From Armatimonadota bacterium (GTDB taxonomy: Bacteria; Armatimonadota; Zipacnadia; Zipacnadales; UBA5352): a stretch of DNA of 16,665 nt. The stretch spans positions 1 to 16,665 of the forward strand of contig JAYENL010000001.1 in NCBI GenBank assembly GCA_034722055.1. Reading direction: 5' to 3'. Position 1 is the first letter of the stretch. Every line of letters begins with the position of its first letter. Positions 3,600-16,325 of the stretch are shown piece after piece. The translations under genes and the position numbers were made by a program. The notes under the pieces were generated by a model, which worked only from the letters and a program-made list of their open reading frames with translations, did not search any database and was not told the DNA's origin.

Positions 3600-3676
3600 A
3601 GAGTTAGTGCGAAACGCAACGTCGGCGGTCCGCGCCGGCGCGCGCCGTGATCCCCCTGGATGGCCGGCTGGGAGAG

Positions 3677-4642
3677 CTACTGCTCCTCGGAGGGCGGTGG
3701 CGGCGGGCCCTCCGCCTCCTCCTTCTGCCGGCGCCTGTAGCGTACGATCAGCCAGATGGCAATCACCAGGGGGATCCAGACGACTGCGCCGGTGATGACG
3801 ATGTAGATCAGCGCGGTGACGACGGCCTGCACCGCCCGCACCAGCCCCCGCCAGGCGCCCTTGAGGTGATATGCGATCTGCCAGGCTGCGGTCTCCTCCA
3901 CCGGCGCCTCGCCGTATTCGGTGAGGGTGATGGTGAGCGTGGAGAAGGCCACCTGGTCCTTCAACATGCGCAGGCGGCCCTGGAGCTGCTCAATCTCCCC
4001 CCGCACCCGGGCCAGCTCGCGCTCCACCTCCAGCAGCTCAGAGACCTTTCCGCTCCTGGCAGCCAACTGCCGATAGCGCTCCGCCAGGGCCTGCTTGTTG
4101 TCGATGCGGATCTGGAGGTTGGCGTACTCCTCGGTGACGTCCTGCCCGCCGATCCGGTCGAGCTTGACATCGCCGAGCTCCTTGGCGGCATCGTAGACCC
4201 TTCGGAAATGCGCCGATGGCACGCGGGCCACGATCTCGGACTGCGTGCGGGTGTCGTACTCGTTTACGGTCAGCGAGGAGATGAAGCCGCCGACGTCATC
4301 CACGAGATCGACGATAGTCGTCTGCGCCTCGTCCAGGTTCTCGACTTCGATGTCCAGGTCGGCGGTCTTGATGATCTTGCGGGCCTGGGCGGCCTCGACC
4401 GTAGAGATCATCGACAGCGCCGCCGCGGTATCGCCGGTGGCGGAGATGTCCACGGCGCCGCCGGCGGCGGTCCGCGCCGCCATCTCCGGAGCCGCCTCCT
4501 CGGCGGCGTACTCGGCGCCGGGGGGGCTGGGGGGCTCCTGCGCCAGTTCCACCTCCCGCTTGGCACATCCCGCCAGCACTACGAGGCCGACGGCCGCGGC
4601 CAGCGCGAGCTTGGTCCGGCTCGACGCCATCATGCGCTGCAT
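3677..4642 (-). CDS. DUF4349 domain lipoprotein, about 321 aa
   Basis: Lipobox VVLAG-C; DUF4349-type motifs KIIKTADLDIEV, GQDVTEEYANLQIRI and ELLEVERELARVRGEIEQLQGRLRMLKDQVAFSTLTITL; C-terminal TM helix followed by RRR. Start set at ATG 4642 after GAGGAGG. Confidence 0.9.
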   Translation of the reverse strand: MQRMMASSRTKLALAAAVGLVVLAGCAKREVELAQEPPSPPGAEYAAEEAAPEMAARTAAGGAVDISATGDTAAALSMISTVEAAQARKIIKTADLDIEVENLDEAQTTIVDLVDDVGGFISSLTVNEYDTRTQSEIVARVPSAHFRRVYDAAKELGDVKLDRIGGQDVTEEYANLQIRIDNKQALAERYRQLAARSGKVSELLEVERELARVRGEIEQLQGRLRMLKDQVAFSTLTITLTEYGEAPVEETAAWQIAYHLKGAWRGLVRAVQAVVTALIYIVITGAVVWIPLVIAIWLIVRYRRRQKEEAEGPPPPPSEEQ

Positions 4643-4693
4643 CGGCGATGCCCTCCTCACGGCGTGATGCCACAGCCGCCCAGCCATCGGTAT

Positions 4694-4719
4694 GACGACG
4701 CGCCCCCGCCTGCGGTTCC
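4694..4719 (-). promoter_or_regulatory. Putative ECF sigma factor promoter GGAACC-N16-CGTC
   Basis: Minus strand reads GGAACC gcaggcgggggcgcgt CGTCATA about 50 nt upstream of the DUF4349 start, matching the generic ECF -35 AAC / -10 CGT pattern. Confidence 0.6.
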
Positions 4720-4768
4720 GTCACGTGCCACCCACGACCGCACTCCTGCGTCGGGGGAGGCAGTGGGA

Positions 4769-7501
4769 CTACTCCGCCAGCGCCGCCCGCAGGGCCGCGC
4801 GGAGTCGTTGAGCCGACGAGCGCGAGACAAGGACATACACGGGCGCCTTCGTGACCTCCAGCGTGTCCTCCAACGGAAGGCGATTGCCCATGGTGTCGAG
4901 CAACTGAGCATCGTCCGGCAGGTCCAGGGCGAACCGGCTGGCCGACAGCTTGGTCCTGGCCCAGATGACCGCCACGAAGCGGTCGGCGGTGCGAAGATAG
5001 CAGGCCGTGATGCCGCTATCATACTCCTCGACGCCCGCCCCCTCGCACGGGTCCAACAGCCACGCTGCGATGCTGTAGACGACCCCATGCGGCCGGATGG
5101 TGCGGTCCCACTCGTAGATCGACATGGCGCTGAGACGCGGGAGCATGCGCGGCTCGACGTTCGTCCAGTAGTAGAAGTAGCGCTCCGAGCCGGAGGCGAT
5201 GGAGAGGGCGAAGTACTGCAGCGACAGGTGCACGGCCTCACCCACCGGAAGTCCGCCGATGCGCCGGGTGTACTGGCTCTCAAGCCTGTCGGGGGTGAAG
5301 CGGTAGAAGCTCGTGGCGGTCAGGCCGGTCTCGGTGTTCCAGCGGGGCATGACGCTTCCGTGGCGCGTTGCCCATGAGCGGACACGATCGTAGGGCGCCC
5401 TGCTCTGGCAGCCGTAGCCGTGGTAGGAGAAGATGGTCGCGCCATCCAAGGCGCCGGCCGCCACTGTCTCGGCGGCCCAGTCAGGGACATTGGGCGAGCA
5501 GCAGGGCGCCAGCACCACACAGGCGGGATTCACCTCGCGTGCCGCCTCGGCCGCCACCTGCGCCATCCGTGCGTACTGCGCCGCGGTGCCACCGTAGAAG
5601 CCATTGTGGTAGGGCTCGTTCCAGACCTCCCAGTGGCGTATCCATGGCCGGTAGTGCCCCACGACGGTGCGCACGTAGCGGCGGAACTCGTCCTCGTCGC
5701 GGTAGGGCCCGACGCCGCGGCGCTGCGCGTCACTGCCCTCCTCGGCCACCGTCCCCCAGTCCGGCACGCGGAGGAACTCGCCGAGGATATGCAGGCCGGC
5801 GTCACGCACCCGCTCGACCTGGTCGTCGAAGAAGCGCCACTGGTCCGGCTCCGGCTCGGCGGTGCGCCAGTGCGTGATGCTGGAGCAATCATGAATGCGC
5901 GTCCAGCGATAGCCCAGCCGCCGCGCGGCGCGCATCTGCCAGTCGGAGTGGGTCGCGAAGTGCCCCCCGATGACGGACTGCTCCGGCGGGACGTTCCGCG
6001 GCCGGGGGATCACCGACAGCACTACTGAGGCCAGGGGCTCCGGATCATCGCCCAGGTGCGCGTCCGCCCGGAAGGCGCCCAGCTCCCGCAGCGGCAGCTC
6101 CACCGGCCGGCTGAGCGTCTCGCCCGGGGCGAGATGCACTGGCACGGGCACCTCCGCCACCACTCGCTCGCGGTAGTCGCGAACTCGCACCGCAATCGTC
6201 TCGTCCACGGCCTCGCTGCCGGCGTGAACCTGGAGCGTCAGCACCTTCGGCTGTCCGGGCGCGAAGATGCAGGCGAAGGCGTCGGTGGTCAGCGACGCCT
6301 CCACGGGCGCGGACGGCTCATACTCGGCGCCGGCGGTGGACAGCGACAGCGCGTCCAGCCACAGCGTGGCCGCGCCCTGCGCGGTGCCACTCACGGTCAG
6401 ATAGTAGGCGCCATTGAGCGACGGCGCCACGGCTCCGGTGGCCGACAAGCGCCGGAGCGTCTCGTCGGGCTGAGCCGTCAGCTCCAGGACCGGCTGAGCC
6501 TGGCTGATGCGCACCGCCGAGTGCAGATGCACGCGCAGCTCCACCGGCCCGCCGGTAGCGGCCGCCGAGATGGCCAGCGTGAAGGGCTCATCGCCAGCGC
6601 CAAACTCGATGCAGGGCGTGGTCAGCGAGACGTGGTCCTCCGCCTGCAGGTCGAAGCGGATCGAGCGCCGCCCGTGGGCGACATGCTCCTCGCACGGCCA
6701 ACGTGGCTCGGCGCCGGCGACATCCCAGTGGTGCGCCACGTCCACCTCGAAGCTTCCGTGGGGCACGACGTTGCCCTCCGGCGGCGGCCCCCCGATGGCC
6801 TCCGGCTCGTGCGTCTCGACCGAGGCGTCGTCGATCCACACGGTGCCCGTGTCCTGGGCCTCAAACCAGATGTAGAGGCCGGCGTTGTCATCGCTCTCGA
6901 GAGTCGTCCCCTCGATCTCGAACAGCTCCCAGTCGCGGCCGGGCTCGAAGGTGCCCCGGAGGTGCTTGGTGTAGGGCGGCGGCGAGTGGCGCAGCGAGGC
7001 GCCCACCTCGGGCACGTGGCCCTCCGCCCGCACCCACATCCGGACCACGTAGCGCCTGCCGGCCTCGATGTCCAGTGGCTGCAGGAACTGCGAGGCGCCG
7101 CTGGTGCGACTGCGGCACTCGATGCGCTGGCAGGTCTGGCCCGAGTGCGGGTTCTGGCGGTCGAGGCTGAAGACGGTATCGCAATGGCCCCACACGTTAG
7201 GCAGCCAGCCCTGCGCCAGGCCCACTTCCGTGGCCGGCGGCTCGAACCCCGGGTTCTGCAGCAGGTTCTCGGCCTGGCAGGTGGGGGCGGCGAGCAGACC
7301 CACGAGCGCGATGACCGTCGGCAGCAGCAGAGAGTGTCCGCATGGCGCCATTGCGGGTCGGCTCATGGTACCATGCCGCCTCTTGGTGTACCGCGCATTG
7401 CCCTGACTTTGGTCTGGACGGGTGCCGGGCTGGAAGCCCCGCCTACGCGAATGAACTGCCGCGAGCGGCCCCCACGCCGACACCAGCATGGGAGTGCGCA
7501 T
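4769..7501 (-). CDS. Secreted clan GH-A glycoside hydrolase (GH39/GH5/GH42-like) with two N-terminal CBM4_9-like modules
   Basis: Signal peptide LLLPTVIALVGLLAAPTCQA; CBM starts NLLQNPGFE and NVVPHGSFE; acid/base motif WEVWNEP; SYHGY; nucleophile motif WNTETG. Start uncertain: ATG 7501 has GAGGAGG upstream, while ATG 7366 or 7351 give a more conventional signal peptide. Confidence 0.85.
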   Translation of the reverse strand: MRTPMLVSAWGPLAAVHSRRRGFQPGTRPDQSQGNARYTKRRHGTMSRPAMAPCGHSLLLPTVIALVGLLAAPTCQAENLLQNPGFEPPATEVGLAQGWLPNVWGHCDTVFSLDRQNPHSGQTCQRIECRSRTSGASQFLQPLDIEAGRRYVVRMWVRAEGHVPEVGASLRHSPPPYTKHLRGTFEPGRDWELFEIEGTTLESDDNAGLYIWFEAQDTGTVWIDDASVETHEPEAIGGPPPEGNVVPHGSFEVDVAHHWDVAGAEPRWPCEEHVAHGRRSIRFDLQAEDHVSLTTPCIEFGAGDEPFTLAISAAATGGPVELRVHLHSAVRISQAQPVLELTAQPDETLRRLSATGAVAPSLNGAYYLTVSGTAQGAATLWLDALSLSTAGAEYEPSAPVEASLTTDAFACIFAPGQPKVLTLQVHAGSEAVDETIAVRVRDYRERVVAEVPVPVHLAPGETLSRPVELPLRELGAFRADAHLGDDPEPLASVVLSVIPRPRNVPPEQSVIGGHFATHSDWQMRAARRLGYRWTRIHDCSSITHWRTAEPEPDQWRFFDDQVERVRDAGLHILGEFLRVPDWGTVAEEGSDAQRRGVGPYRDEDEFRRYVRTVVGHYRPWIRHWEVWNEPYHNGFYGGTAAQYARMAQVAAEAAREVNPACVVLAPCCSPNVPDWAAETVAAGALDGATIFSYHGYGCQSRAPYDRVRSWATRHGSVMPRWNTETGLTATSFYRFTPDRLESQYTRRIGGLPVGEAVHLSLQYFALSIASGSERYFYYWTNVEPRMLPRLSAMSIYEWDRTIRPHGVVYSIAAWLLDPCEGAGVEEYDSGITACYLRTADRFVAVIWARTKLSASRFALDLPDDAQLLDTMGNRLPLEDTLEVTKAPVYVLVSRSSAQRLRAALRAALAE
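7424..7475 (-). repeat. Two REP-like elements
   Basis: Minus strand GTGG-GG-GCCGC-TC-GCGGC (7475-7458) and GTAG-GCG-GGGC-TTCCA-GCCC (7446-7427); the second shares the GGCTTCCAGCC core with the elements at 1907, 16344 and 16458. Confidence 0.65.
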
Positions 7502-7525
7502 GACGATCCGTCCTCCTCGCCCGCG

Positions 7526-7951
7526 TTATCGCTGCCGCAGCAGTGGCAGACCATCCGACGACATCTCGCGCGTCACCGAGAGCCCGGGCAGCACCTGCAG
7601 GACGATCTCGCACAGGTAGAGCACGATGGTCTGCGGCTCCAGGTGACCGCCGAGGGTGGTCTCGGCGTCGCTGGCGGTGATGTGGGCATGGACCTGGCCG
7701 TCGGCGATCAGGCCCGCGATCTGGCACAGCTCCATGGGGCCCTCATGCACCACGTAGCGGTTCCTCGGGGGCAGCTCGCACCAATCGCCGACGTGGATGT
7801 GGGTCCGCTTGAGGGCGCCGAAGCCGGTGACGATGGCCGCGCAGTCGAGGCCCTCATCCTCCGCGACCTGCTGCAGGCTCTCCAGCAGCAGGTCGCCGTC
7901 GTCGAGCCGGACGACGATGGTCCGGCCGTCATCTGAGATGAAGCGTTCCAT
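7526..7951 (-). CDS. PPC domain (DUF296) protein, 141 aa
   Basis: IVVRLDDGDLLLESL, TGFGAL, GPMELCQIAG, the VHAH (HxH) motif and GGHL, at the typical length for the family. Confidence 0.92.
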   Translation of the reverse strand: MERFISDDGRTIVVRLDDGDLLLESLQQVAEDEGLDCAAIVTGFGALKRTHIHVGDWCELPPRNRYVVHEGPMELCQIAGLIADGQVHAHITASDAETTLGGHLEPQTIVLYLCEIVLQVLPGLSVTREMSSDGLPLLRQR

Positions 7952-8035: not shown

Positions 8036-9742
8036 TCAGTCTCCGACGCCGTTGGACACGCTGCGGATCGTGTAAACACGGCCTCGTCTCTCGCCCGCGG
8101 GCGCGAGGACGCCCATATCAACCAACTTCCCTAGAAGATAGCTGACGTGCCGGAGTTCTGCCTGCGATAGGTCTCGGCGCCTGTAGAGGAGAGCGGCGAT
8201 CTCTGCCCGTCCTGCTGGTTGGATCTGGCTCAATACTTCGACAATCCGGGCTTCTTCCTCGTGCTCTTCGTCGAATGACAGCATCACGTCTCTGGGCGCT
8301 TGGGTTGGGGCGAGGGTGTAGTACGCGCCACCTCGGGTCCCGTGCATCTCAATGATTCCAACGTCTACGAGCCCGCGCAACTCTCTCGTTGCGGTTGGCC
8401 CGCCGACGCTGTTGATGCGTTGGAAGTCTCGGTTCGCCATTCGGCCGTGCAGACGCAGGTATGCGAGCGCCATCAACTGCTGCTCGGAAAGCGAGTGCGG
8501 CCCGAACTGCTGCAACCACTCGCGCACTTCCGGCGACATGAGGTGCGCGTTCCTGAGGGTGACCTGGAAGGATGTACTCGACTCATGAAAATCAGGCGGC
8601 GCGAGGCCGGCTCTCTTCATCTCGGCGATCATAAGCGTCACGCCAGTTCCGCGCTGCTCCATCAAGCCAAACTCGCGTAACGCGGCTACCATCCGGGGAT
8701 TGCGGGTGGACTGCTCGTGCTCGATATTGTCAAGAGTGACTGTCCCGAAGAGGGTTCCTGGGTTCCTGATCTCGATGCGGTCGGCGAAGATACGAATGCG
8801 GATCGCAGTCCCCCGATGAGCGTAGCTACGGTGTGCCACTGCGTTTGTGATCGCTTCTCGGATCACCTCCTCAGGGTACTCCGGGACTTCTGCACGCCAC
8901 AGTCCCCTGACCTCGGCACGTCGGGCGACTCTCCCCATCACGGTCTCAACTGCCCTCACGATGATGTCTTGGGCACGGCCATGTATCTCGCGGTCAAAGA
9001 GATAGCGCGAACCTGCCTCGCGCGCAGCCACCGTGGTCCCCTCGAACTGGGTGACTGTGGCAACGCATCTGGGGAAGAACCGCTGCGGGTCGTCGCCGAA
9101 GAGTAACAGCCCAGCCACGGTGGGGATCAGGCGCTGCTTCTGTTCTGCCACGAAGCCTCCTCGCCGGAGCAGATCAGTGTCGCTTGCCTCGCCAGCCCCG
9201 CTCGAGGGATCTCGGCGAGCTATCGCCCCTCGGTACTCCTCGATGGTCGCGTCGTTTACGGGGCCGGCCTCGAAATCGTCACGGAGAGCTCCGAGGAACT
9301 GCGCCAGATCATCTGCGGTCATCCGCCGGTTGGTGTTCCCAACTCTGCGGTAAGCGCCATTGGGCAAACCGCGGCGTCTGATGTAACAAGGCTTGCGAGC
9401 ATCTGGTAACTCGCGCACCTCTGCGGCTACGATCACTTCTCCATCCGCTTCTGCGAGGGTGAACTCCGGTTGGATTCGGGGCTCCATCTGGTCGTTTGCG
9501 AGGCCAGATAGTTCCTCTTGAAGGGATCCCGCGTCGTAGACTCCGGTCGCGACGTATCCCGCGACTTCATCAATGCCAAAGATAAGCACACCACCGCCCC
9601 GCCGGTTGGCGAAGGCTGACAGCGACTCCAGGACCGACTCGGTTGGCATTCCGTCCTTAGCCTTCTTGAGTTCGACGTCCTGGAGCTCGCTGCCGTGACT
9701 GCGGACCTCCTCGAGAAGATCCAGCAGCGTCTCGCTATCCAC
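8036..9742 (-). CDS. AlbA_2 (Schlafen-like) + HATPase_c_4 (RecG C-terminal-like) + winged-helix protein, 568 aa
   Basis: ELQDVELK and SAFANRRGGGVLIFGIDE (AlbA_2); YPEEVIREAITNAVAHRSY, IEIRNPG, RNPRM and EQRGTGV (HATPase_c_4); two C-terminal wHTH-like segments (ATRELRGLVDVGII...GTRGGAYY and YLLGKLVDMGVL...GERRGRVY). GTG start with GAGGT upstream. Confidence 0.9.
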   Translation of the reverse strand: MDSETLLDLLEEVRSHGSELQDVELKKAKDGMPTESVLESLSAFANRRGGGVLIFGIDEVAGYVATGVYDAGSLQEELSGLANDQMEPRIQPEFTLAEADGEVIVAAEVRELPDARKPCYIRRRGLPNGAYRRVGNTNRRMTADDLAQFLGALRDDFEAGPVNDATIEEYRGAIARRDPSSGAGEASDTDLLRRGGFVAEQKQRLIPTVAGLLLFGDDPQRFFPRCVATVTQFEGTTVAAREAGSRYLFDREIHGRAQDIIVRAVETVMGRVARRAEVRGLWRAEVPEYPEEVIREAITNAVAHRSYAHRGTAIRIRIFADRIEIRNPGTLFGTVTLDNIEHEQSTRNPRMVAALREFGLMEQRGTGVTLMIAEMKRAGLAPPDFHESSTSFQVTLRNAHLMSPEVREWLQQFGPHSLSEQQLMALAYLRLHGRMANRDFQRINSVGGPTATRELRGLVDVGIIEMHGTRGGAYYTLAPTQAPRDVMLSFDEEHEEEARIVEVLSQIQPAGRAEIAALLYRRRDLSQAELRHVSYLLGKLVDMGVLAPAGERRGRVYTIRSVSNGVGD

Positions 9743-10139: not shown

Positions 10140-10167
10140 GCAGGTTGCGCGGTATGCGCGGCGAAGT
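10140..10167 (+). promoter_or_regulatory. Putative alternative-sigma promoter GCAGGT-N14-GGCGAAGT
   Basis: Both boxes are identical to those at 3571-3599; lies 25 nt upstream of GTG 10193. Confidence 0.6.
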
Positions 10168-10192
10168 GGGCAAGGAGAGACAGGAAGGGGAG

Positions 10193-12589
10193 GTGCCGGC
10201 GATACTGCGGCCGATCATGACCATCGGACTGCTGACGAGCATCTGCGCCGCGACGCATGCCCAGCGCGTCGTGCCTGCCACCGAGGCCTACCAGCCGTGG
10301 CTGGAGACCGCCTGCATCATGCAGCCGTGGAGCCTGGAGCGCACGCGGGCGCTGGTTGAGGACCGTGAGGAGTGGATTCCGCGGCTGAAAAGGTGGGGCT
10401 TCGACAGCGTCATCTTCATCCCCGGCCCCAGCGACATCCGCCCGAACTACCCCATGGATGCCCTGAGGGAGGCGGTCGATGACTACCATGCGGCGGGCTT
10501 CAAGGTCATCATGTACTCCTCCATCATGCACGCCGGCCATCATGAGACGTGGCACTCGGTAGCTGCGAACCGCCCCGCCTGGTGGCAGCGCGGGCCGCGA
10601 GGAGGGACCGTCGAGGTCTACGGGGACAAGTGGCTCTGCCCCAACACCGGCGCGCTGCAGTTCACCACCGACCTGGCCATCCGGCTGGCGGCGGAGATGG
10701 ACGCCGACGGCATCATGCTCGACAACAACGAGTTCTACTACACCGACCACGGCGCCACCTGCTACTGCCAGGGCTGCCAGGAGAGCTTCGGCCGGCACAT
10801 CCGGCAGAAGCTCGGCGACGAGAGGCTGCGCGAGATGGGCCTGGATCCCGAGCGCGTTCGCTGTCCCGAGCCCGGCGAGCCGCTGTATCCGCACTGGGTG
10901 GACTGGCGCTACGTGGCGTGGCGGGAGGCCACCGAGGAGTTCCGGCGGCGGGTGCGCGAGGCCCTGCCGGGCACCATGCTGTGCGCGAACACGCAATACA
11001 AGTACAATTGGGTGCTGGCGGTGCATGAGCAGATGGCGGCGGAGGACGTGGTGTTGTCCGAGTCCCGCCACCAGTACGGTCGCGAGATGTCATGCAAGCT
11101 GGCCTACGGCCACGCCCTGGCGGATGGCAAGCCGCTGTGGAACTACCTGGGCACCTGGGAGGACGACGACCTCAGCCGCATCCTGCCGCCCCACGAGATC
11201 CACGATCAGCTCTGCACCACGCTGGCGTGGGGCTGCTCGCCGTGGATCGTGGGCTACGGGCTGGTGGACCGGGCGCCGGCCGCCCACTGGAGCTTCGGCC
11301 ACTACGCCAGCGAGGGGCGCAGCGGCTTCCGGCGCCACGAGGAGGGCGGGCCGGACGGCTCCGCGGCCATCGAGCTGTGGGCGGAGACGACGTCCCGGAT
11401 CAGCACCTTCCAGTCGCCCTTCCTGGAGGTGCAACCGGGCCAGCAATTCGCCTTCCGGTGCCGATACCGCACCGAGGGCGTGGCGCCCGGCCATCCCCGC
11501 CTGAGGCTGACCTTCGTCAACGCCGCGCTCAAGCCGCCCGGCGGCGAGCCCTACGTGTTCTTCGCAGAGGGCGAGGGGGGCACGCACGGCTGGGAGGAGC
11601 TGGTCCTGGATGGCGTTACCGCCCCGGAGGGCGCGGAGGTCGTCAACGTGGAGGTCTTCCTCTGGGACGCCTCCGGGAGTCTGTTCCTCGACGACGTGCA
11701 GTTCATCCGGGAGGGTGAGAACCTGCTGCGGAATCCGGGCTTCGAGCGGCGGGTGGCTGAAGAGAACGCCGCCGGGCGCGAGGCTCTGGTCGGCGGCCTG
11801 CAGTTCTGGCGCGAGCACGAGGAGCTGTACCGCGGGGCCACGCGCTGGGCGGACGTGGGACTGCTGCTGTCGCGGCACAGCGTGGACTTCAGGGAGGTCT
11901 ACAACCGCTTCCCGCGCCCGACCATGAACGCCCTTCTGGACGCGCACATCCCGTTCGCAGTGCTCGAGGAGCACCAGCTCGACGACGAGCACCTCTCGCG
12001 CTTCACCGTCGTGGTGGTCCCCGTGGCGAGCTGCCTGCCGGAGGAGGGCCTGCGGACGCTGGCGCGCTGGGTGCGCGGTGGCGGCCGGCTGATCGTGACC
12101 GGCGGGACGGGGCAGTACACGCAGTACGGCGAGGAGCGCGGGCGTGACCTGCTGGCGGTGCTGTTGGGGCAGTTGCGGGAGGCGCTGTGGGAGGCCCGCG
12201 AGGTGGGGGAGGGCATGGCGCGGTGGCTGCCGCAGGGCGATGGGGACGAGGAGGTCGCAGAGGGCCTTGTCGAGGCCATCCGGGAGCTGGGCGGCGGCGA
12301 GATCGTGCGCGTGGAGGGCGCTCCGGAGGGCATCGACCTGATCGCCTGGGCGCAGGCCGATCAGCGGCGGCTCCTGCTGCACCTGGACCGCCACGAGGCG
12401 GGGAAGGGCGGCGACGTCGCCCTGCGCCTCCGGGTGCCCGAGGGATGGAGCCCGCCCGCGAGCGTGACGTGTTACGACCTGCACGCGGGGGAGCGGGAGG
12501 TCGAGGCCCGATCTGAGGACGGATACGTCAGCTTCACCGTCCCCGCGCCGGAATGGTACGCGGTGGTTGCGGTGCGGTTCGGCGGATGA
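10193..12589 (+). CDS. Secreted putative glycoside hydrolase (GH42/GHL6-like TIM barrel + inserted CBM-like module + beta-galactosidase trimerisation/GATase1-like domain), about 798 aa
   Basis: Signal peptide ending ICAATHA; DGIMLDN followed by a CYCQGC metal-binding cluster; ADVGLLLS...ALLDAHIPF...LSRFTVVVVP...LARWVRGGGRLIVTG (trimerisation-type domain). Start set at GTG 10193 after a purine-rich SD; ATG 10217 is an alternative. Confidence 0.8.
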   Translation: MPAILRPIMTIGLLTSICAATHAQRVVPATEAYQPWLETACIMQPWSLERTRALVEDREEWIPRLKRWGFDSVIFIPGPSDIRPNYPMDALREAVDDYHAAGFKVIMYSSIMHAGHHETWHSVAANRPAWWQRGPRGGTVEVYGDKWLCPNTGALQFTTDLAIRLAAEMDADGIMLDNNEFYYTDHGATCYCQGCQESFGRHIRQKLGDERLREMGLDPERVRCPEPGEPLYPHWVDWRYVAWREATEEFRRRVREALPGTMLCANTQYKYNWVLAVHEQMAAEDVVLSESRHQYGREMSCKLAYGHALADGKPLWNYLGTWEDDDLSRILPPHEIHDQLCTTLAWGCSPWIVGYGLVDRAPAAHWSFGHYASEGRSGFRRHEEGGPDGSAAIELWAETTSRISTFQSPFLEVQPGQQFAFRCRYRTEGVAPGHPRLRLTFVNAALKPPGGEPYVFFAEGEGGTHGWEELVLDGVTAPEGAEVVNVEVFLWDASGSLFLDDVQFIREGENLLRNPGFERRVAEENAAGREALVGGLQFWREHEELYRGATRWADVGLLLSRHSVDFREVYNRFPRPTMNALLDAHIPFAVLEEHQLDDEHLSRFTVVVVPVASCLPEEGLRTLARWVRGGGRLIVTGGTGQYTQYGEERGRDLLAVLLGQLREALWEAREVGEGMARWLPQGDGDEEVAEGLVEAIRELGGGEIVRVEGAPEGIDLIAWAQADQRRLLLHLDRHEAGKGGDVALRLRVPEGWSPPASVTCYDLHAGEREVEARSEDGYVSFTVPAPEWYAVVAVRFGG

Positions 12590-12626
12590 CCGGGGCTGGC
12601 AGTGCCGGTTCGGGAGGGATTTGGTG

Positions 12627-13478
12627 ATGGGACACAGAGGTATGCTGGTGGTGTGCTCCGCGCTGATCACATGTCAGGCGGTGCTCGGACAGCCTCAGAC
12701 CGAGGTCACCATCACCACCGACCCGGTGCCGGCCGAGGTCAATATGCTGACGAACCCCGGCTTCGAGGAGGGCCTGGGCGAGGAGGGGGCGCCGGTGGGC
12801 TGGCGGATCAACACCGCGGCGCCGGAGAGCTTCGCCTTCGAGCCCCTCGGGAAGGCCCGCTCCGGCGACGTCTGCTGGCGCGTGCACACCGATTCCCCGG
12901 CCATGTCCGGCTACATCCAGCAGAACGTGCACGTGGAGGCCGACACGCAGTACCGCGCCTGGACGTGGCTGCGGCTGCAGGGCGGGCGCTACATGATGCT
13001 GCTGCGCGGCCGGGTGCGGCCGCCGGGGGAGCCGCCGTGGCGCTTCGATGAGCGCACTGACATCATCTCCACGCACAACCACTGGCTAGCGCCGCTGTAT
13101 CTGGAACCCGAGCACCTGCAGGGCCCGCCGCCGGACGAGTGGATCCTCATGCCGCTGGACATCACTGTCCCGGACGGGCTGGAGACGGTCCAGGTGTGGC
13201 TGGGCTCCTACTTCACCGCCTCTGAGATGCACTTCGACGACACCTACTTCGGCCCGGCGACCTGTACCCTGTCCGTGCGCGTGCACAGCGACTCGCCGAT
13301 CCGCGACGTCATTGTGCGGGACGTCGCCGGTGGGCCGGCGATCTACCGTGACGACGAGCCGGGCGGGGAGACCACCTGGCAGGTGACGGTCCCCGATTTG
13401 CCCATCGCCGACGCCTACCGGGTAACCGTGAGGACCGACGCCGGCGAGCAACAGCTCCTCGTGCTCGCCAACCGGTGA
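12627..13478 (+). CDS. Secreted protein with a CBM4_9-like carbohydrate-binding module, about 283 aa
   Basis: Signal peptide (MLVVCSALITCQAVLG), NMLTNPGFE...GW...YIQQNVHV...YRAWTW...EW...HFDDTYF and a short beta-rich tail. GGAGG at 12613-12617; GTG 12624 is an alternative start. Confidence 0.8.
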   Translation: MGHRGMLVVCSALITCQAVLGQPQTEVTITTDPVPAEVNMLTNPGFEEGLGEEGAPVGWRINTAAPESFAFEPLGKARSGDVCWRVHTDSPAMSGYIQQNVHVEADTQYRAWTWLRLQGGRYMMLLRGRVRPPGEPPWRFDERTDIISTHNHWLAPLYLEPEHLQGPPPDEWILMPLDITVPDGLETVQVWLGSYFTASEMHFDDTYFGPATCTLSVRVHSDSPIRDVIVRDVAGGPAIYRDDEPGGETTWQVTVPDLPIADAYRVTVRTDAGEQQLLVLANR

Positions 13479-13505: not shown

Positions 13506-16325
13506 ATGAGACGCCCAAGACTGCTGGCGCTGGCGCTCTGTGGCTGTCTGCTCGCCGCCGCGGCCCCGGCCGCGGAGCTTGAGTGCGGTTCACTGGCCGT
13601 CACGCTGGACGAGGCGACCGGTCGCATCACCGGTGCGCGGCTGCCGCAGCTCGACCGGGCGCTCGGCCTGACCGGCGGTCTGCGTCTGACTGAGGGCGCT
13701 GAGGAGCGGGAGATCGCGCTTGGGGACGCGACTTTCGAGGCCGCCCGTGCGCCGCGCCTGCTCTTCCAGCCGGAGGGCGAGGGGCTGACCGTCGCCTGCA
13801 CGATCCGCGCCGAGGCCGGCTGGCTGGCGTGGGACGTGACGCTGCGCAACGATGCCGACCGACAGCGGCTGCTGGCTCTGTCGCTGCCCGTGGAGGTGCC
13901 GGCCGATGGTCCGCCGGCCTGCTACGACGGCTACCTGGAGGAGCCGGCGCTGGAGGAGCCGTTCGACGGCCCTCGGTACCGCACGCCCATTCCGCTGTGC
14001 GCGGCCTGGAGCGAGGCCGGGGGCGCCGCGGTGGGCATCAGCCCCAGGGAGCACCTCTCCTTCATCGCCACGCGCGGCGAGCCGCTGGCGGACGCCGGCG
14101 CGCGCATCGAGACCTGCACCCGCATCGTGCTCGACCCCGGGCAGCAGCTTCAGGTGGAGCTGCTGCTGTGCGGGATGAGCGGCCGGTGGGGCAGGGGCGA
14201 GGCGCTGCACTGGTGGTACGCCTCGGCGCCGGAGCTGTTCCGGCCCGCCGGGGGCATCGACCCCCGGGTGCTGCGCGCCAGCGGCCAGTACCTGGCCTGG
14301 AAGCGCAATCCGCTGATCCAGGAGGACTACGCTGTCCGCGAGCGTGCCCGACGCTGCCACGTGGGCTGGGACTGGTGCATCGGGCCCTTCAAGCGGGTCG
14401 GTGACATCGTGGCGCGTAAGGAGTGGTTCGACTACGACCCGGCGCTTCCGGAGCGGATGGACGAGACCGACAGGCTTCCGTGGTCGGAGTATCGCGCGCA
14501 GCGCAGGGCGCGCTTCCAGACCGGCGAGCGGCTCGGCGTGGCCATGCTCTTCTACACCCCGTCGCAGATCTGGTGCGAGGAGCAGCTTGCGCGGGAGCAC
14601 TTCGAGGACGCCATCGTCAGGGACCCGTCAGTGAGCACCCGCCACCCGAACGGCTACGTGAAGCGCCACGAGGCGGTCGTGCGCGTCTTCCCCCACAATA
14701 CGAGCTGGGGGGAGCAGTCGAAGCGGGACCTGGCGGAGGTGTCCGAGCAGCTCGGGCTCTACGGCTTCGCCTTCGACACCGCCACCGGTCCCGCGAAGTA
14801 CCGCGGGCCGGGGATGGACGGGCTGCCCGAGCGCGGCTGGGATGAGGATGGCCCCTTCGTGCGCGAGGGCGTGGCCATCCGCCGGCTCATGGAGCATGTG
14901 CACACGCTGGAGCATGAGGATGGCACCACCGTGGCGGTGGTGGCGAACATCCGCCACAGCGCCGACTACAACTGCTGCATGGGGGCGGACGCGGCGCTGT
15001 TCGAGGGCGAGCCCTGGAAGGGCCTCCGCGGCCGCGAGTGGGCACTGCGCGACGCCATCGGCACCAAGCCCGCCTGCTGGTGGGAGCATTACGCGCTGGA
15101 CAGCCTGGTGGACTATGAGAACATGACACGCGAGGAGATCGCGGCGGCCTACCAGGGCATGGCCGACTTCACCGCCATCGAGAGCCTGCACATGGGCTTC
15201 TGGCCCACGGCCGCCTACTCCCGCGGCTTCGAGTCCATGACCCGGCGCTACCTGCCGCGCATCGAGGCCTGCATCGCGGCGGGCTGGCAGCCGGTGACCG
15301 CCGCGCACAGCGACGACTTCACCTGGATCACACGCTACGGGAGCGGCCTGGGGACGCACATTGCGGTCGGCAACGAGACCGCGGAGCCGGCGGAGGGCAC
15401 GCTGGCTCTCTCTCGGGAGTGGCTTGATGCGCCGCTGCCGGTGCCCACCGTGGCGCTGCTGGCGGAGATCCCCATCATCGGCAAGCTCTTCCGCCGGCCC
15501 GGCGCACTCGTCTTCACAGCGTTCGACGGCGGCTCGCTGACCACGCGGGTCGAGCCGGAGACCCTCACCGTGAGCGGCGTGAGCGTGCCCCGCCGCGCGG
15601 CGGAGGTGGTGGCGGCCTGTGCGGTGCTGGACCTCCCGGCCGGGTCCTCAGCGACCGCCCAGTGGACCGGCGACCGCGTACGCCGGACGCTGGCTCTCAC
15701 CGTCGAGGCGCCGGAGGACGTGGCGCCCTGTGGGGGAGTTCGCGTCCCCGATGGGATGCGCGTCGCCGCGGCCCGCATCGACGGCGAGGACGTCGCGTGC
15801 CGCGAGCACCGGGGCACGGCGTTCTTCGCCGACGAGGGCCAGCGGCGCGAGTACCGCGTCGAGATGGATTTGGTCTCGTCGATCATCGAGCCGGCGCAGG
15901 AGGAGCTTCTGGCGGTGGACTTCCTGTTCGGGGACCAGCCCGCCGGTTACGTGGTCATTCTCGGCGAGGCCACGGAGGCCGAGGAGCTCGCCGCGGAGCG
16001 GATCGTGCACTACTTCCAGTGGTTCGTGGCATCCGAGCGCGGCGTGGAGGAGCCGGAGCCGTTCCCGGTGGTGCGCGGGGAGATTCCGCGCGATGACTCG
16101 TTGATGATCGTCATAGACCTGGGGGGCGAGGCGCCGGGGGTGAGGCTGCCGGACGCGCGGCACCTGGAGGTCACGGCGCCGGACGCGGACGGCCTGGAGC
16201 GGGCCGTCGATGAGCTGCTGCACGTGCTGGACGCCGAGTACGTGGCACCGCCGACCTTCGTGTGGCGGCGGTCAACCAACGAGGCCGGGCTTATCGGCGA
16301 GTGGCTGCCCGACCCGGTGCGGTGA
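13506..16325 (+). CDS. Large secreted hypothetical protein, possible glycoside hydrolase of unassigned family, 939 aa
   Basis: Signal peptide MRRPRLLALALCGCLLAAAAPA; beta-rich N-terminal region; alpha/beta central region with LYGFAFDT and AALFEG acidic strand-end motifs; C-terminal alpha/beta domain. SD GGAGGAG upstream. The CDS is secure but the function is inferred. Confidence 0.7.
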   Translation: MRRPRLLALALCGCLLAAAAPAAELECGSLAVTLDEATGRITGARLPQLDRALGLTGGLRLTEGAEEREIALGDATFEAARAPRLLFQPEGEGLTVACTIRAEAGWLAWDVTLRNDADRQRLLALSLPVEVPADGPPACYDGYLEEPALEEPFDGPRYRTPIPLCAAWSEAGGAAVGISPREHLSFIATRGEPLADAGARIETCTRIVLDPGQQLQVELLLCGMSGRWGRGEALHWWYASAPELFRPAGGIDPRVLRASGQYLAWKRNPLIQEDYAVRERARRCHVGWDWCIGPFKRVGDIVARKEWFDYDPALPERMDETDRLPWSEYRAQRRARFQTGERLGVAMLFYTPSQIWCEEQLAREHFEDAIVRDPSVSTRHPNGYVKRHEAVVRVFPHNTSWGEQSKRDLAEVSEQLGLYGFAFDTATGPAKYRGPGMDGLPERGWDEDGPFVREGVAIRRLMEHVHTLEHEDGTTVAVVANIRHSADYNCCMGADAALFEGEPWKGLRGREWALRDAIGTKPACWWEHYALDSLVDYENMTREEIAAAYQGMADFTAIESLHMGFWPTAAYSRGFESMTRRYLPRIEACIAAGWQPVTAAHSDDFTWITRYGSGLGTHIAVGNETAEPAEGTLALSREWLDAPLPVPTVALLAEIPIIGKLFRRPGALVFTAFDGGSLTTRVEPETLTVSGVSVPRRAAEVVAACAVLDLPAGSSATAQWTGDRVRRTLALTVEAPEDVAPCGGVRVPDGMRVAAARIDGEDVACREHRGTAFFADEGQRREYRVEMDLVSSIIEPAQEELLAVDFLFGDQPAGYVVILGEATEAEELAAERIVHYFQWFVASERGVEEPEPFPVVRGEIPRDDSLMIVIDLGGEAPGVRLPDARHLEVTAPDADGLERAVDELLHVLDAEYVAPPTFVWRRSTNEAGLIGEWLPDPVR

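Follow-up and report, generated by a model that had tools for sequence, protein, structure and literature searches.

What is a secretin-like peptide doing in an exported, enzyme-like protein of an Armatimonadota bacterium? The locus lies in the window, by which we mean the whole stretch of 16,665 nucleotides that was analysed, and consists of a CDS on the + strand (13506..16325) for a 939-aa protein whose translation, AlphaFold model and structural matches point to a GH36/GH129/GH101-like architecture. The initial annotation had reported a secretin signature peptide with Pro-rich flanks at 15450..15497, embedded in a putative glycoside hydrolase that otherwise shows no secretin features. Translation of these nucleotides on the + strand gave VALLAEIPIIGKLFRR, residues 649-664, with APLPVPT upstream and RRPG downstream, which confirmed the observation.

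The host protein contained no Pfam family (E <= 0.01) and no NCBIfam family. Its AlphaFold model (mean pLDDT 94.9, pTM 0.93) predicts a glycosidase-like fold of beta-sandwich, (beta/alpha)8 barrel and beta-sandwich, as in clan GH-D-like enzymes (GH36, GH129, GH101, GH31). Foldseek matched the model with 9awt_A (E 4.5e-16, TM 0.60 by target length), and VIA aligned 575/654 residues with 9ayu_A (Z 22.1, rmsd 5.6, model span 23-708), which supports the glycosidase-like fold. The same arrangement, with one beta-sandwich N-terminal and another C-terminal to a (beta/alpha)8 barrel, is common to the GH36-type alpha-galactosaminidase of Flavonifractor plautii (9awt, 9ayu, 8x1b), the GH129 enzyme NagBb (5wzn; VIA Z 15.4-15.6, about 505 residues aligned) and GH36 alpha-galactosidases. 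Sequence identity to these GH36/GH129 enzymes is only about 10%, without a family HMM match, and the host protein differs from them by the secretin-like loop and by an additional alpha/beta domain at its C-terminus, which covers about residues 800-939. The central barrel, recognized from alternating strands and helices in the model, spans about residues 230-600 (14194..15305, +). When 105 family sequences were aligned, the only invariant columns were D424, D495 and G519, and the two Asp residues are candidate catalytic residues of the barrel.

The N-terminus is basic and hydrophobic with an A-x-A-like end, which suggests a probable Sec signal peptide of about residues 1-23 (13506..13574, +; cleavage site placed by eye). 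In the model this region forms a helix (residues 3-17) of low pLDDT (66-69). A lipoprotein anchor was considered as another kind of tether and rejected, since inspection by eye revealed no conserved lipobox in the N-termini of carriers or non-carriers of the secretin-like segment.

In the AlphaFold model, the motif segment was placed between strands 629-636 and 667-672 of the C-terminal beta-sandwich. It is predicted to form two short helices (649-654 and 656-662), giving a helix-kink-helix element on Pro-rich linkers, with a pLDDT of 71-87 that is below that of the rest of the protein. Among the 14-mers of the mature protein the motif ranked 3/904 in hydrophobicity. A 117-aa fragment around it matched PF00263 and nothing else, over profile positions 134-149 of 169, with 11.1 bits and E 0.3, a score far under the gathering cut-off of that family (27.5 bits). 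Together with a match to the type IV pilus secretin PilQ, this delimits a core of VALLAEIPIIGKLF, residues 649-662 (15450..15491, +). The protein thus contains the loop motif hydrophobic-P-x-L-x-[DE]-[IL]-P-x-x-G-x-L-F. The full secretin domain was absent from the whole 939-aa protein (Pfam, E <= 0.01), as were the N-terminal secretin modules Secretin_N, STN and N0, which are present in the secretins of this genome. No Pfam secretin match was obtained outside the motif, in agreement with the initial annotation.

The motif appears to correspond to an element of secretins known as the amphipathic helical loop (AHL). In those parts of the secretin literature that we could consult, the AHL is described as the region of these proteins that is conserved best, and is proposed, mostly from structures, to start outer-membrane insertion. 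Five of the eight invariant columns in an alignment of 48 secretin domains fell within the motif (P147, L149, P153, G156 and F159). The insert is near-identical to the AHL of PilQ, GspD and InvG (PF00263 positions about 134-149), which is likewise hydrophobic and has a short helix predicted around G-K-L-F. Unlike the secretin AHL, it lies outside any secretin domain and is bordered by Pro-rich linkers instead of a following strand such as ELLIFVTP. In the PilQ model a coil (146-155) and a helix (156-159) lead into a strand (160-175), whereas the host insert has no following barrel strand. The two also differ in copy number: the glycosidase-like protein has one loop per monomer, while secretins are described as having 12-16 subunits (PMC9239104) and PilQ as having 12-15 monomers (PMC10653833).

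The motif is very unlikely to occur by chance. With the amino-acid frequencies of this genome, 5.18 million ORF residues are expected to contain the pattern proposed in the initial annotation 1e-5 times and a looser form of 9 residues 0.045 times. The looser form occurred four times when the 6.14-Mb genome was translated in six frames, namely in the host protein and in three true secretins (PF00263 E 6e-34 to 8e-41, 117-140 bits). A census of the motif DNA pattern in 67 genomes of the order gave 150 matches that were classified, with 17 further matches outside the listing. Among the matches listed, 148 of 150 lay within PF00263 domains, and the remaining two were the host gene and its orthologue in the genome G015. 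Among these matches the motif sequence is therefore otherwise exclusive to the secretin family. A search of species-representative genomes found an insert-type sequence in just one further genome, that of a Candidatus Zipacnadia bacterium. A homology search with residues 640-680 (E <= 10) yielded 80 candidates, of which the cluster of the query alone passed; the known carriers P0003-P0005 failed as well, so that this search had no power to reveal further carriers.

DNA and protein alignments showed that the motif is part of a lineage-specific indel of 20 codons, residues 647-666 (15444..15503, +), the borders of which are uncertain by a few codons. The insert was present in 4 of 15 close aligned homologues (P0001, which is the 939-aa protein, P0003, P0004 and P0005) and missing from the other 11, some of which are 64-67% identical. 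In the stored family it was found in 5 of 164 proteins, two of them of the same sequence, and was absent from the other 159, including roughly 150 more distant representatives. Seven orthologue loci could be read across the insert site, and only this genome (G000) and G015 had the insert; in a three-way DNA alignment with the window and G015, the G003 orthologue had a gap of 60 nt. By these alignments the segment belongs to an indel of a surface-type loop and is no conserved core element. An assembly artefact was rejected because four assemblies, independent of one another (sources own, jgi, lgn and ncbi), all have the insert. In the maximum-likelihood tree the four carriers were paraphyletic, so that three changes were needed, which would imply one or two losses. 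A single carrier clade was not rejected on the tree test (p-AU 0.105), and secondary loss of the insert, in P0008 and in a clade of eight members, is therefore possible. In sum, the alignments and searches show a genuine, non-random insertion that is specific to one lineage and resembles secretins, in a host protein that is itself no secretin.

Sequence comparison identifies the loop motif of PilQ from the same bacterial family as the nearest relative of the insert. The motif is identical to the PilQ of this genome in 11 of 12 residues, and the P0003 version, PLLADIPIIGKLF, matches the PilQ orthologue of G006 (L049) in 13 of 13. Within this family, the Ala of L-A-[DE] is characteristic of PilQ-type sequences: LADIPIIGKLF is found in G005, G006, G010 and G012. 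The pilQ gene of this genome resides on contig C35 in a cluster pilM-pilO-STN-pilQ-aroC-aroK, and the best non-self DNA match of the motif in a genome-wide blastn search fell within this pilQ (C35:12619-12657, 39 nt, 89.7%, E 8.7e-6). A separate comparison with pilQ gave 35/40 nt identical. Identical residues encoded by 13 codons in a genome of 70% G+C can account for this similarity through codon bias, so that the nucleotide identity with pilQ is suggestive of copying but inseparable from codon bias. No direct repeats or other junction signature were visible in the three-way DNA alignment. In G015, the PilQ motif LLHQIPIIGKLF differs from the insert LLAEIPIIGRLF; the copy must therefore be old, and no present-day donor is traceable. 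Ongoing gene conversion with pilQ was rejected, since there are positions at which the inserts of G000 and G015 are alike but the PilQ motif of G015 departs from its insert. The up to 13/13 identity with PilQ of the same family makes a copy from a PilQ-type gene likelier than convergence, and such copying is the most likely origin of the insert.

How can these observations be brought together? The explanation that we prefer, though tentatively, is a single insertion derived from the PilQ AHL and co-opted as a loop that holds an exported enzyme at the outer membrane, rather than a general tag. An exported GH36/GH129-like enzyme would have gained roughly 20 codons once, in a shallow Armatimonadota (Zipacnadia-type) lineage, and the insertion would have entered a loop of the C-terminal beta-sandwich. 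Its core of 13-14 residues would be homologous to, and most likely copied from, the AHL that the type IVa pilus secretin PilQ has in the same family, with Pro-rich linkers on either side. As a hydrophobic interfacial loop, the insert could then retain the enzyme in the periplasm at the outer membrane's inner face, a role that would parallel the one supposed for the AHL of secretin monomers. An outer membrane must be present because the genome encodes secretins. The rank of the motif in hydrophobicity, the predicted helix-kink-helix on Pro-rich linkers and the N-terminal signal-like sequence are in favour of such a tether. Against it, close orthologues work without the insert, the membrane binding of a single short loop in each monomer may be weak compared with that of the 12-15 copies in secretins, and the hydrophobic face of the insert may, in terms of the model, pack on the protein instead.

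Short amphipathic helical elements beside a flexible linker are also found in the interfacial loops of the periplasmic-face enzymes BcsG and EptA, which are proposed to put the catalytic domain at the membrane surface (bioRxiv 10.1101/2024.06.05.597511). Those loops are unrelated in sequence to the insert, and BcsG and EptA are integral inner-membrane proteins, unlike the host protein, in which the inserted loop is the sole hydrophobic element past the signal peptide.

It is also quite conceivable that the insert is an accidental copy in an indel-tolerant loop, kept by hydrophobic helices packing on the beta-sandwich or a subunit interface and devoid of any role in membrane binding or targeting. 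The loop is indeed an indel hotspot: an unrelated insert occupies this very site in a distant homologue from G032 (L012), and in the sister clade a different insert, of 20 residues, lies 15 residues downstream. Orthologues without the motif are otherwise intact, and the pLDDT of the insert suggests a placed rather than a floppy segment. Conservation speaks on both sides. Among the four carriers, 12 of 15 motif columns were invariant, versus 7 of 20 in the flanks and 59% for the protein overall; the flanks thus vary freely while the core keeps the residues of the secretin consensus, and the three substitutions among carriers (A/P, E/D and K/R) all stay inside that consensus. This level of conservation was not significantly above the protein average (binomial p 0.078), and 207 of 925 windows were equally or more conserved; when G000 and G015 were compared, the stretch of 16 codons at residue 647 ranked 12th of 918 in nucleotide identity. 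An exposed loop of such hydrophobicity would be costly to a soluble protein unless used, which argues against a mere passenger.

Independent emergence of the loop sequence, by convergence or chance and without descent from any secretin gene, is unlikely. It would fit with a common stretch of only 13-14 residues between flanks that lack similarity, with a DNA identity explicable by codon bias and with an insert that does not track the PilQ of its own genome. It is difficult to reconcile with the minute chance expectation per genome, with the 13/13 match to PilQ of the same family, which includes the family-specific Ala, and with the near-complete restriction of the pattern to secretins among the matches listed. 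Even less probable is mimicry for docking, whereby the enzyme would bind, through the loop, to the PilQ channel or to an AHL-recognising secretin-assembly factor. Tethering to a secretin channel had been proposed in the initial annotation, and the motif resembles the PilQ paralogue more closely than it does the other secretins of this genome; yet the insert has none of the adjacent beta-strands by which the AHL is positioned in a secretin, and the parts of the secretin literature at hand contain no report of an AHL-recognising factor. The broader proposal that the motif is a portable localisation signal reused in many non-secretin proteins has the host enzyme as its sole supporting case and is highly improbable, since no other non-secretin carrier occurred among the 150 listed and classified matches from 67 genomes, other proteins of the enzyme family had no motif and the species representatives contained the insert-type pattern in one other genome. 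The initial annotation had named a failure of the motif to recur in non-secretin proteins beyond chance as a refutation, and among the listed matches this was the outcome. Nor was the accompanying claim of an H-X9-DG pilin-associated family in the window upheld: Pfam searches of 9 ORFs, NCBIfam searches of 11 ORFs and a regular expression for prepilin N-termini identified no member.

Under the preferred explanation of a co-opted membrane loop, this would be a natural case in which the AHL alone was moved to an unrelated exported enzyme, and the orthologues with and without the loop are a ready pair of constructs that could show whether the AHL suffices for membrane association. That the secretin AHL is an autonomous, transferable module for outer-membrane association is a rather doubtful proposition at present. 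If it were true, the case would be direct evidence that the AHL has the part in BAM-independent membrane targeting long proposed for it, and would supply a natural tag of minimal size for the outer membrane's periplasmic face. If the loop is inert, the case would be an oddity of how loops evolve, within a glycosidase-like family that is uncharacterised. With copying as its most likely origin, the case would also show that very short in-frame pieces of one bacterial gene can be fixed in another.

Translation of positions 15450-15497 on the plus strand confirmed the initial annotation's observation of a secretin-like peptide, VALLAEIPIIGKLFRR, at residues 649-664 of the 939-aa product of ORF 13506-16325 (the host protein). 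Its Pro-rich flanks were likewise borne out, since APLPVPT directly precedes the motif and PG directly follows it. From the amino-acid frequencies of the genome's long ORFs (5.18 million residues in all), 1e-5 matches would be expected for the original 14-position regular expression and 0.045 for a looser 9-position form; the six-frame translation of the 6.14-Mb genome contained three and four places, respectively. The four looser-form places were the window, one ORF on contig C35 and two ORFs on contig C178, and the latter three are true secretins (PF00263, E 8.7e-40, 5.9e-34 and 7.6e-41). A 117-aa host-protein fragment around the motif matched PF00263 alone (profile positions 134-149 of 169, 11.1 bits), and the full-length protein matched no Pfam family at E ≤ 0.01 and no NCBIfam family. 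The resemblance is thus real and local, and limited to the secretin signature.

The N-terminus of the host protein, basic and then hydrophobic, resembles a Sec signal peptide by eye. Among 1.84 billion cluster representatives, 366 relatives were retrieved at E ≤ 0.001; they form an uncharacterised family, and 105 of them were used to build a very confident AlphaFold model (mean pLDDT 94.9, pTM 0.93). In this model the (beta/alpha)8 barrel stands between an N-terminal and a C-terminal beta-sandwich, and an alpha/beta domain ends the protein. The nearest enzymes, identified with Foldseek and VIA-align, were a GH36-type alpha-galactosaminidase of Flavonifractor plautii (9awt_A, Foldseek E 4.5e-16) and the D463A mutant of the F. 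plautii alpha-galactosaminidase (9ayu_A; VIA Z 22.1, rmsd 5.6, 575/654 residues aligned, model residues 23-708), together with GH129 NagBb (VIA Z 15.4-15.6), GH36 alpha-galactosidases and GH101 EngBF (VIA Z about 15 for both). The model's layout and neighbours support the designation as a putative glycoside hydrolase by fold, which the sequence families (no Pfam, no NCBIfam) did not. Only D424, D495 and G519 were invariant across the 105 family sequences, and the two Asp are candidates that would fit a clan GH-D-type mechanism.

The neighbours of the host gene also look carbohydrate-related. An 814-aa ORF (10145-12589, plus strand) has weak GHL6, GH42M and GH114 matches, all below cut-off, and a 303-aa ORF (12567-13478, plus strand) contains N-P-G-F-E and, close to its start, a hydrophobic segment resembling a signal sequence. 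Weak GH39 and CBM_4_9 matches were found for a 910-aa ORF (4769-7501, minus strand), which overlaps with long ORFs on the plus strand (3647-5377 and 6056-7936); either strand may code at 3647-7936. Between 8001 and 10000 the G+C content is 0.60-0.63, versus about 0.70 elsewhere in the window, and this stretch, with an ORF at 8036-9742 (minus strand) matching Schlafen AlbA_2 (E 2.8e-13) and HATPase_c_4 (E 9.1e-27), may be acquired DNA splitting a glycosidase-like gene cluster. The pilin-associated H-X9-DG family that the initial annotation placed in the window was found neither by Pfam (9 ORFs) nor by NCBIfam (11 ORFs), nor by a six-frame regular expression for prepilin N-termini.

Alignment of homologues, proposed as a check for an indel, indeed revealed one. 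All 15 proteins from a word-indexed search, the window's own cluster included, were aligned; the segment was present in four of them (the host protein P0001 and its homologues P0003, P0004 and P0005), in the form T-V-[AP]-L-L-A-[ED]-I-P-I-I-G-[KR]-L-F, and absent from the other 11, some of which are 64-67% identical to the query. In homologue P0008, W-P is directly followed by G-Q-P-E-A-L at this site. The DNA alignment of the window with related genomes G015 and G003 showed a clean 60-nt difference, and the motif was absent from the other 159 stored family proteins. Of the 61 related genomes compared, seven besides the window's contained a close orthologue, with 64% identity or more; among the seven loci readable across the site, the window's included, the insert was found only in the window's genome (G000) and G015. 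An insert-specific DNA pattern hit one locus in genome_contigs, in a Candidatus Zipacnadia MAG, the window's own record maybe lying outside that collection. An assembly artefact was ruled out as the origin of the insert, since each of its four carriers belongs to a separate assembly with a source of its own.

In the AlphaFold model, strands 629-636 and 667-672 of the C-terminal beta-sandwich flank the insert, for which two short helices (649-654 and 656-662) are predicted; pLDDT values are 71, 77 and 87 for residues 641-650, 651-660 and 661-670, and mostly 95-99 elsewhere. The segment's hydrophobicity ranks third among the 904 14-mers of the mature protein. A G032 homologue (36% identity) has an unrelated insert at the motif's loop, and an eight-member sister clade without the secretin-like loop has a different 20-residue insert (R-E-M-P-G-T ... 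S-V-W) about 15 residues downstream, at window protein residues about 681-685 in the orthologue alignment. Indels are thus tolerated in the loop region, this face of the beta-sandwich being an indel hotspot. In orthologue P0012 (genome G008, contig C26, locus L010), a deletion from just after G-N-E-T-A-E-P to D-G takes out the first C-terminal beta-sandwich strands and the loop site, the tblastn match being split in two on one contig.

With a DNA pattern encoding L-x-[DE]-[ILM]-P-h-h-G-x-[LF]-F, 167 matches were obtained in 63 of the 67 genomes of the order (reversed-pattern control: 2 matches). The 150 matches listed were classified, and diverged copies would escape the pattern. In the window's family (18 genomes), 63 of the 65 matches lay within PF00263 matches by coordinates, the other two being the window gene and its G015 orthologue. 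All classified matches in other families were secretins, 40 by coordinates against PF00263 matches and two sets of 25 and 20 by Pfam on fetched ORFs; the Pfam run for the first set covered 30 loci, five being family matches already counted by coordinates. Secretins thus made up 148/150 classified matches, and the remaining two represent one orthologous gene. The initial annotation had read the motif as a reused, portable tag; among the 150 of 167 matches from the 67 genomes its occurrence outside secretins is a single evolutionary event. Within the limits of this census, the lack of recurrence in non-secretins, which the initial annotation had named as a refuting outcome, speaks against the general claim. 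Outside the window, C178 carries three tandem secretin-domain genes within about 4 kb (27643-31602; PF00263 at 27643-28116, 29462-29929 and 31120-31602). This triple arrangement on one contig occurs in 14 of the 18 family genomes, at syntenic loci in the relatives, and its middle secretin scores far lower (41-68 bits) and is without the loop pattern.

The C35 secretin gene follows pilM, a PilO-like gene and an STN-domain gene and precedes aroC and aroK, and the closest solved relative of its product is Vibrio cholerae PilQ (6w6m); on account of this setting and structure, it is PilQ, the secretin of the type IVa pilus. The sequence of its loop is T-P-L-L-S-E-I-P-I-I-G-K-L-F, and the window's L-L-A-E-I-P-I-I-G-K-L-F is identical to it at 11 of 12 positions. 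PilQ orthologues of other genera in the family (G005, G006, G010 and G012) have L-A-D-I-P-I-I-G-K-L-F, the P0003 insert agreeing with G006 PilQ at 13/13 residues (PLLADIPIIGKLF); other secretin paralogues differ (e.g. L-S-D-I-P-V-I-G-E-L-F and L-G-D-L-P-I-I-G-Q-L-F). The best non-self genome DNA match to a 121-nt query around the insert was pilQ (39 nt, 89.7%, E 8.7e-6), an identity that cannot be told apart from codon bias because it covers no more than 13 codons and the genome's G+C content is 70%, and no junction signature was visible in the three-way DNA alignment with G015 and G003. We consider it probable that the insert was copied from a PilQ-type gene, and unlikely that the loop reached its secretin-like sequence independently by convergence. 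The G015 insert (L-L-A-E-I-P-I-I-G-R-L-F) is unlike G015's own PilQ loop (L-L-H-Q-I-P-I-I-G-K-L-F); continuing gene conversion with pilQ is therefore ruled out, and the copy is old.

A maximum-likelihood tree was built without the indel columns, three distant homologues forming the outgroup. In it the carriers are paraphyletic and branch off basally among the orthologues; the branching order is P0012, P0001, P0003, the group P0004+P0005+P0008, and then eight non-carriers. This tree requires a minimum of three changes, and its well-supported branches force at least two; such a history would comprise one gain and one or two losses. A tree holding the four carriers together was not rejected (p-AU 0.105). 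We conclude that the insert was gained once, and subsequent loss is likely.

In secretins, the amphipathic helical loop (AHL) is described as thought to begin monomer contact with the inner leaflet (PMC6532946), as associating with that leaflet through its hydrophobic surface (PMC10653833) and as delimiting the membrane region on its lower side (PMC7545093). In a mitochondrial GspD, V162 and F166 face the membrane (PMC8134430), and their i, i+4 spacing fits h-G-x-L-F. In an alignment of 48 secretin domains five of the eight invariant columns fell inside the motif, and in a PilQ model the motif is a coil with a helix of four residues, directly ahead of the final strand of the barrel. The inferred identity of the motif with the AHL rests on these literature statements, none of which spells out the motif, on the alignment and on the PilQ model.

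The exported enzyme bears a loop that is hydrophobic, helical in part and set on Pro-rich stalks, and that probably derives from the PilQ AHL. Tentatively, this loop would dip into the outer membrane from the periplasmic side and keep the enzyme in place, possibly close to glycans of the envelope or bound to the membrane. By analogy, amphipathic loops of BcsG and EptA have been proposed to place catalytic domains at the membrane surface (bioRxiv 10.1101/2024.06.05.597511). Among the four carriers 12/15 motif columns are invariant (whole protein 59%, immediate flanks 7/20; binomial p 0.078, with 207/925 windows equally or more conserved). The three substitutions (A/P, E/D and K/R) are all compatible with the secretin consensus. 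Between G000 and G015, the 16-codon window from residue 647 has 94% nucleotide identity (rank 12/918; 73.7% overall). This pattern fits purifying selection on the core and freely varying linkers, and is no proof of it. An enzyme held at the membrane by an AHL-derived loop is narrowly the most likely reading, at less than even odds. The main rival, a passenger that is inert, or has a structural role alone, in a loop open to indels, has similar odds, and docking of the loop to PilQ or an assembly factor is a remote possibility. The initial proposal is partly supported: the recurrent tag is dropped, and what stands is a secretin-like, plausibly functional insert that may bind the membrane. No description of a secretin loop in a non-secretin protein was found in the literature searched, which left out most subscription journals. 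An interfacial hydrophobic loop on an exported enzyme is of an already known kind; what is new here is its probable secretin origin, as a rare and lineage-restricted feature.
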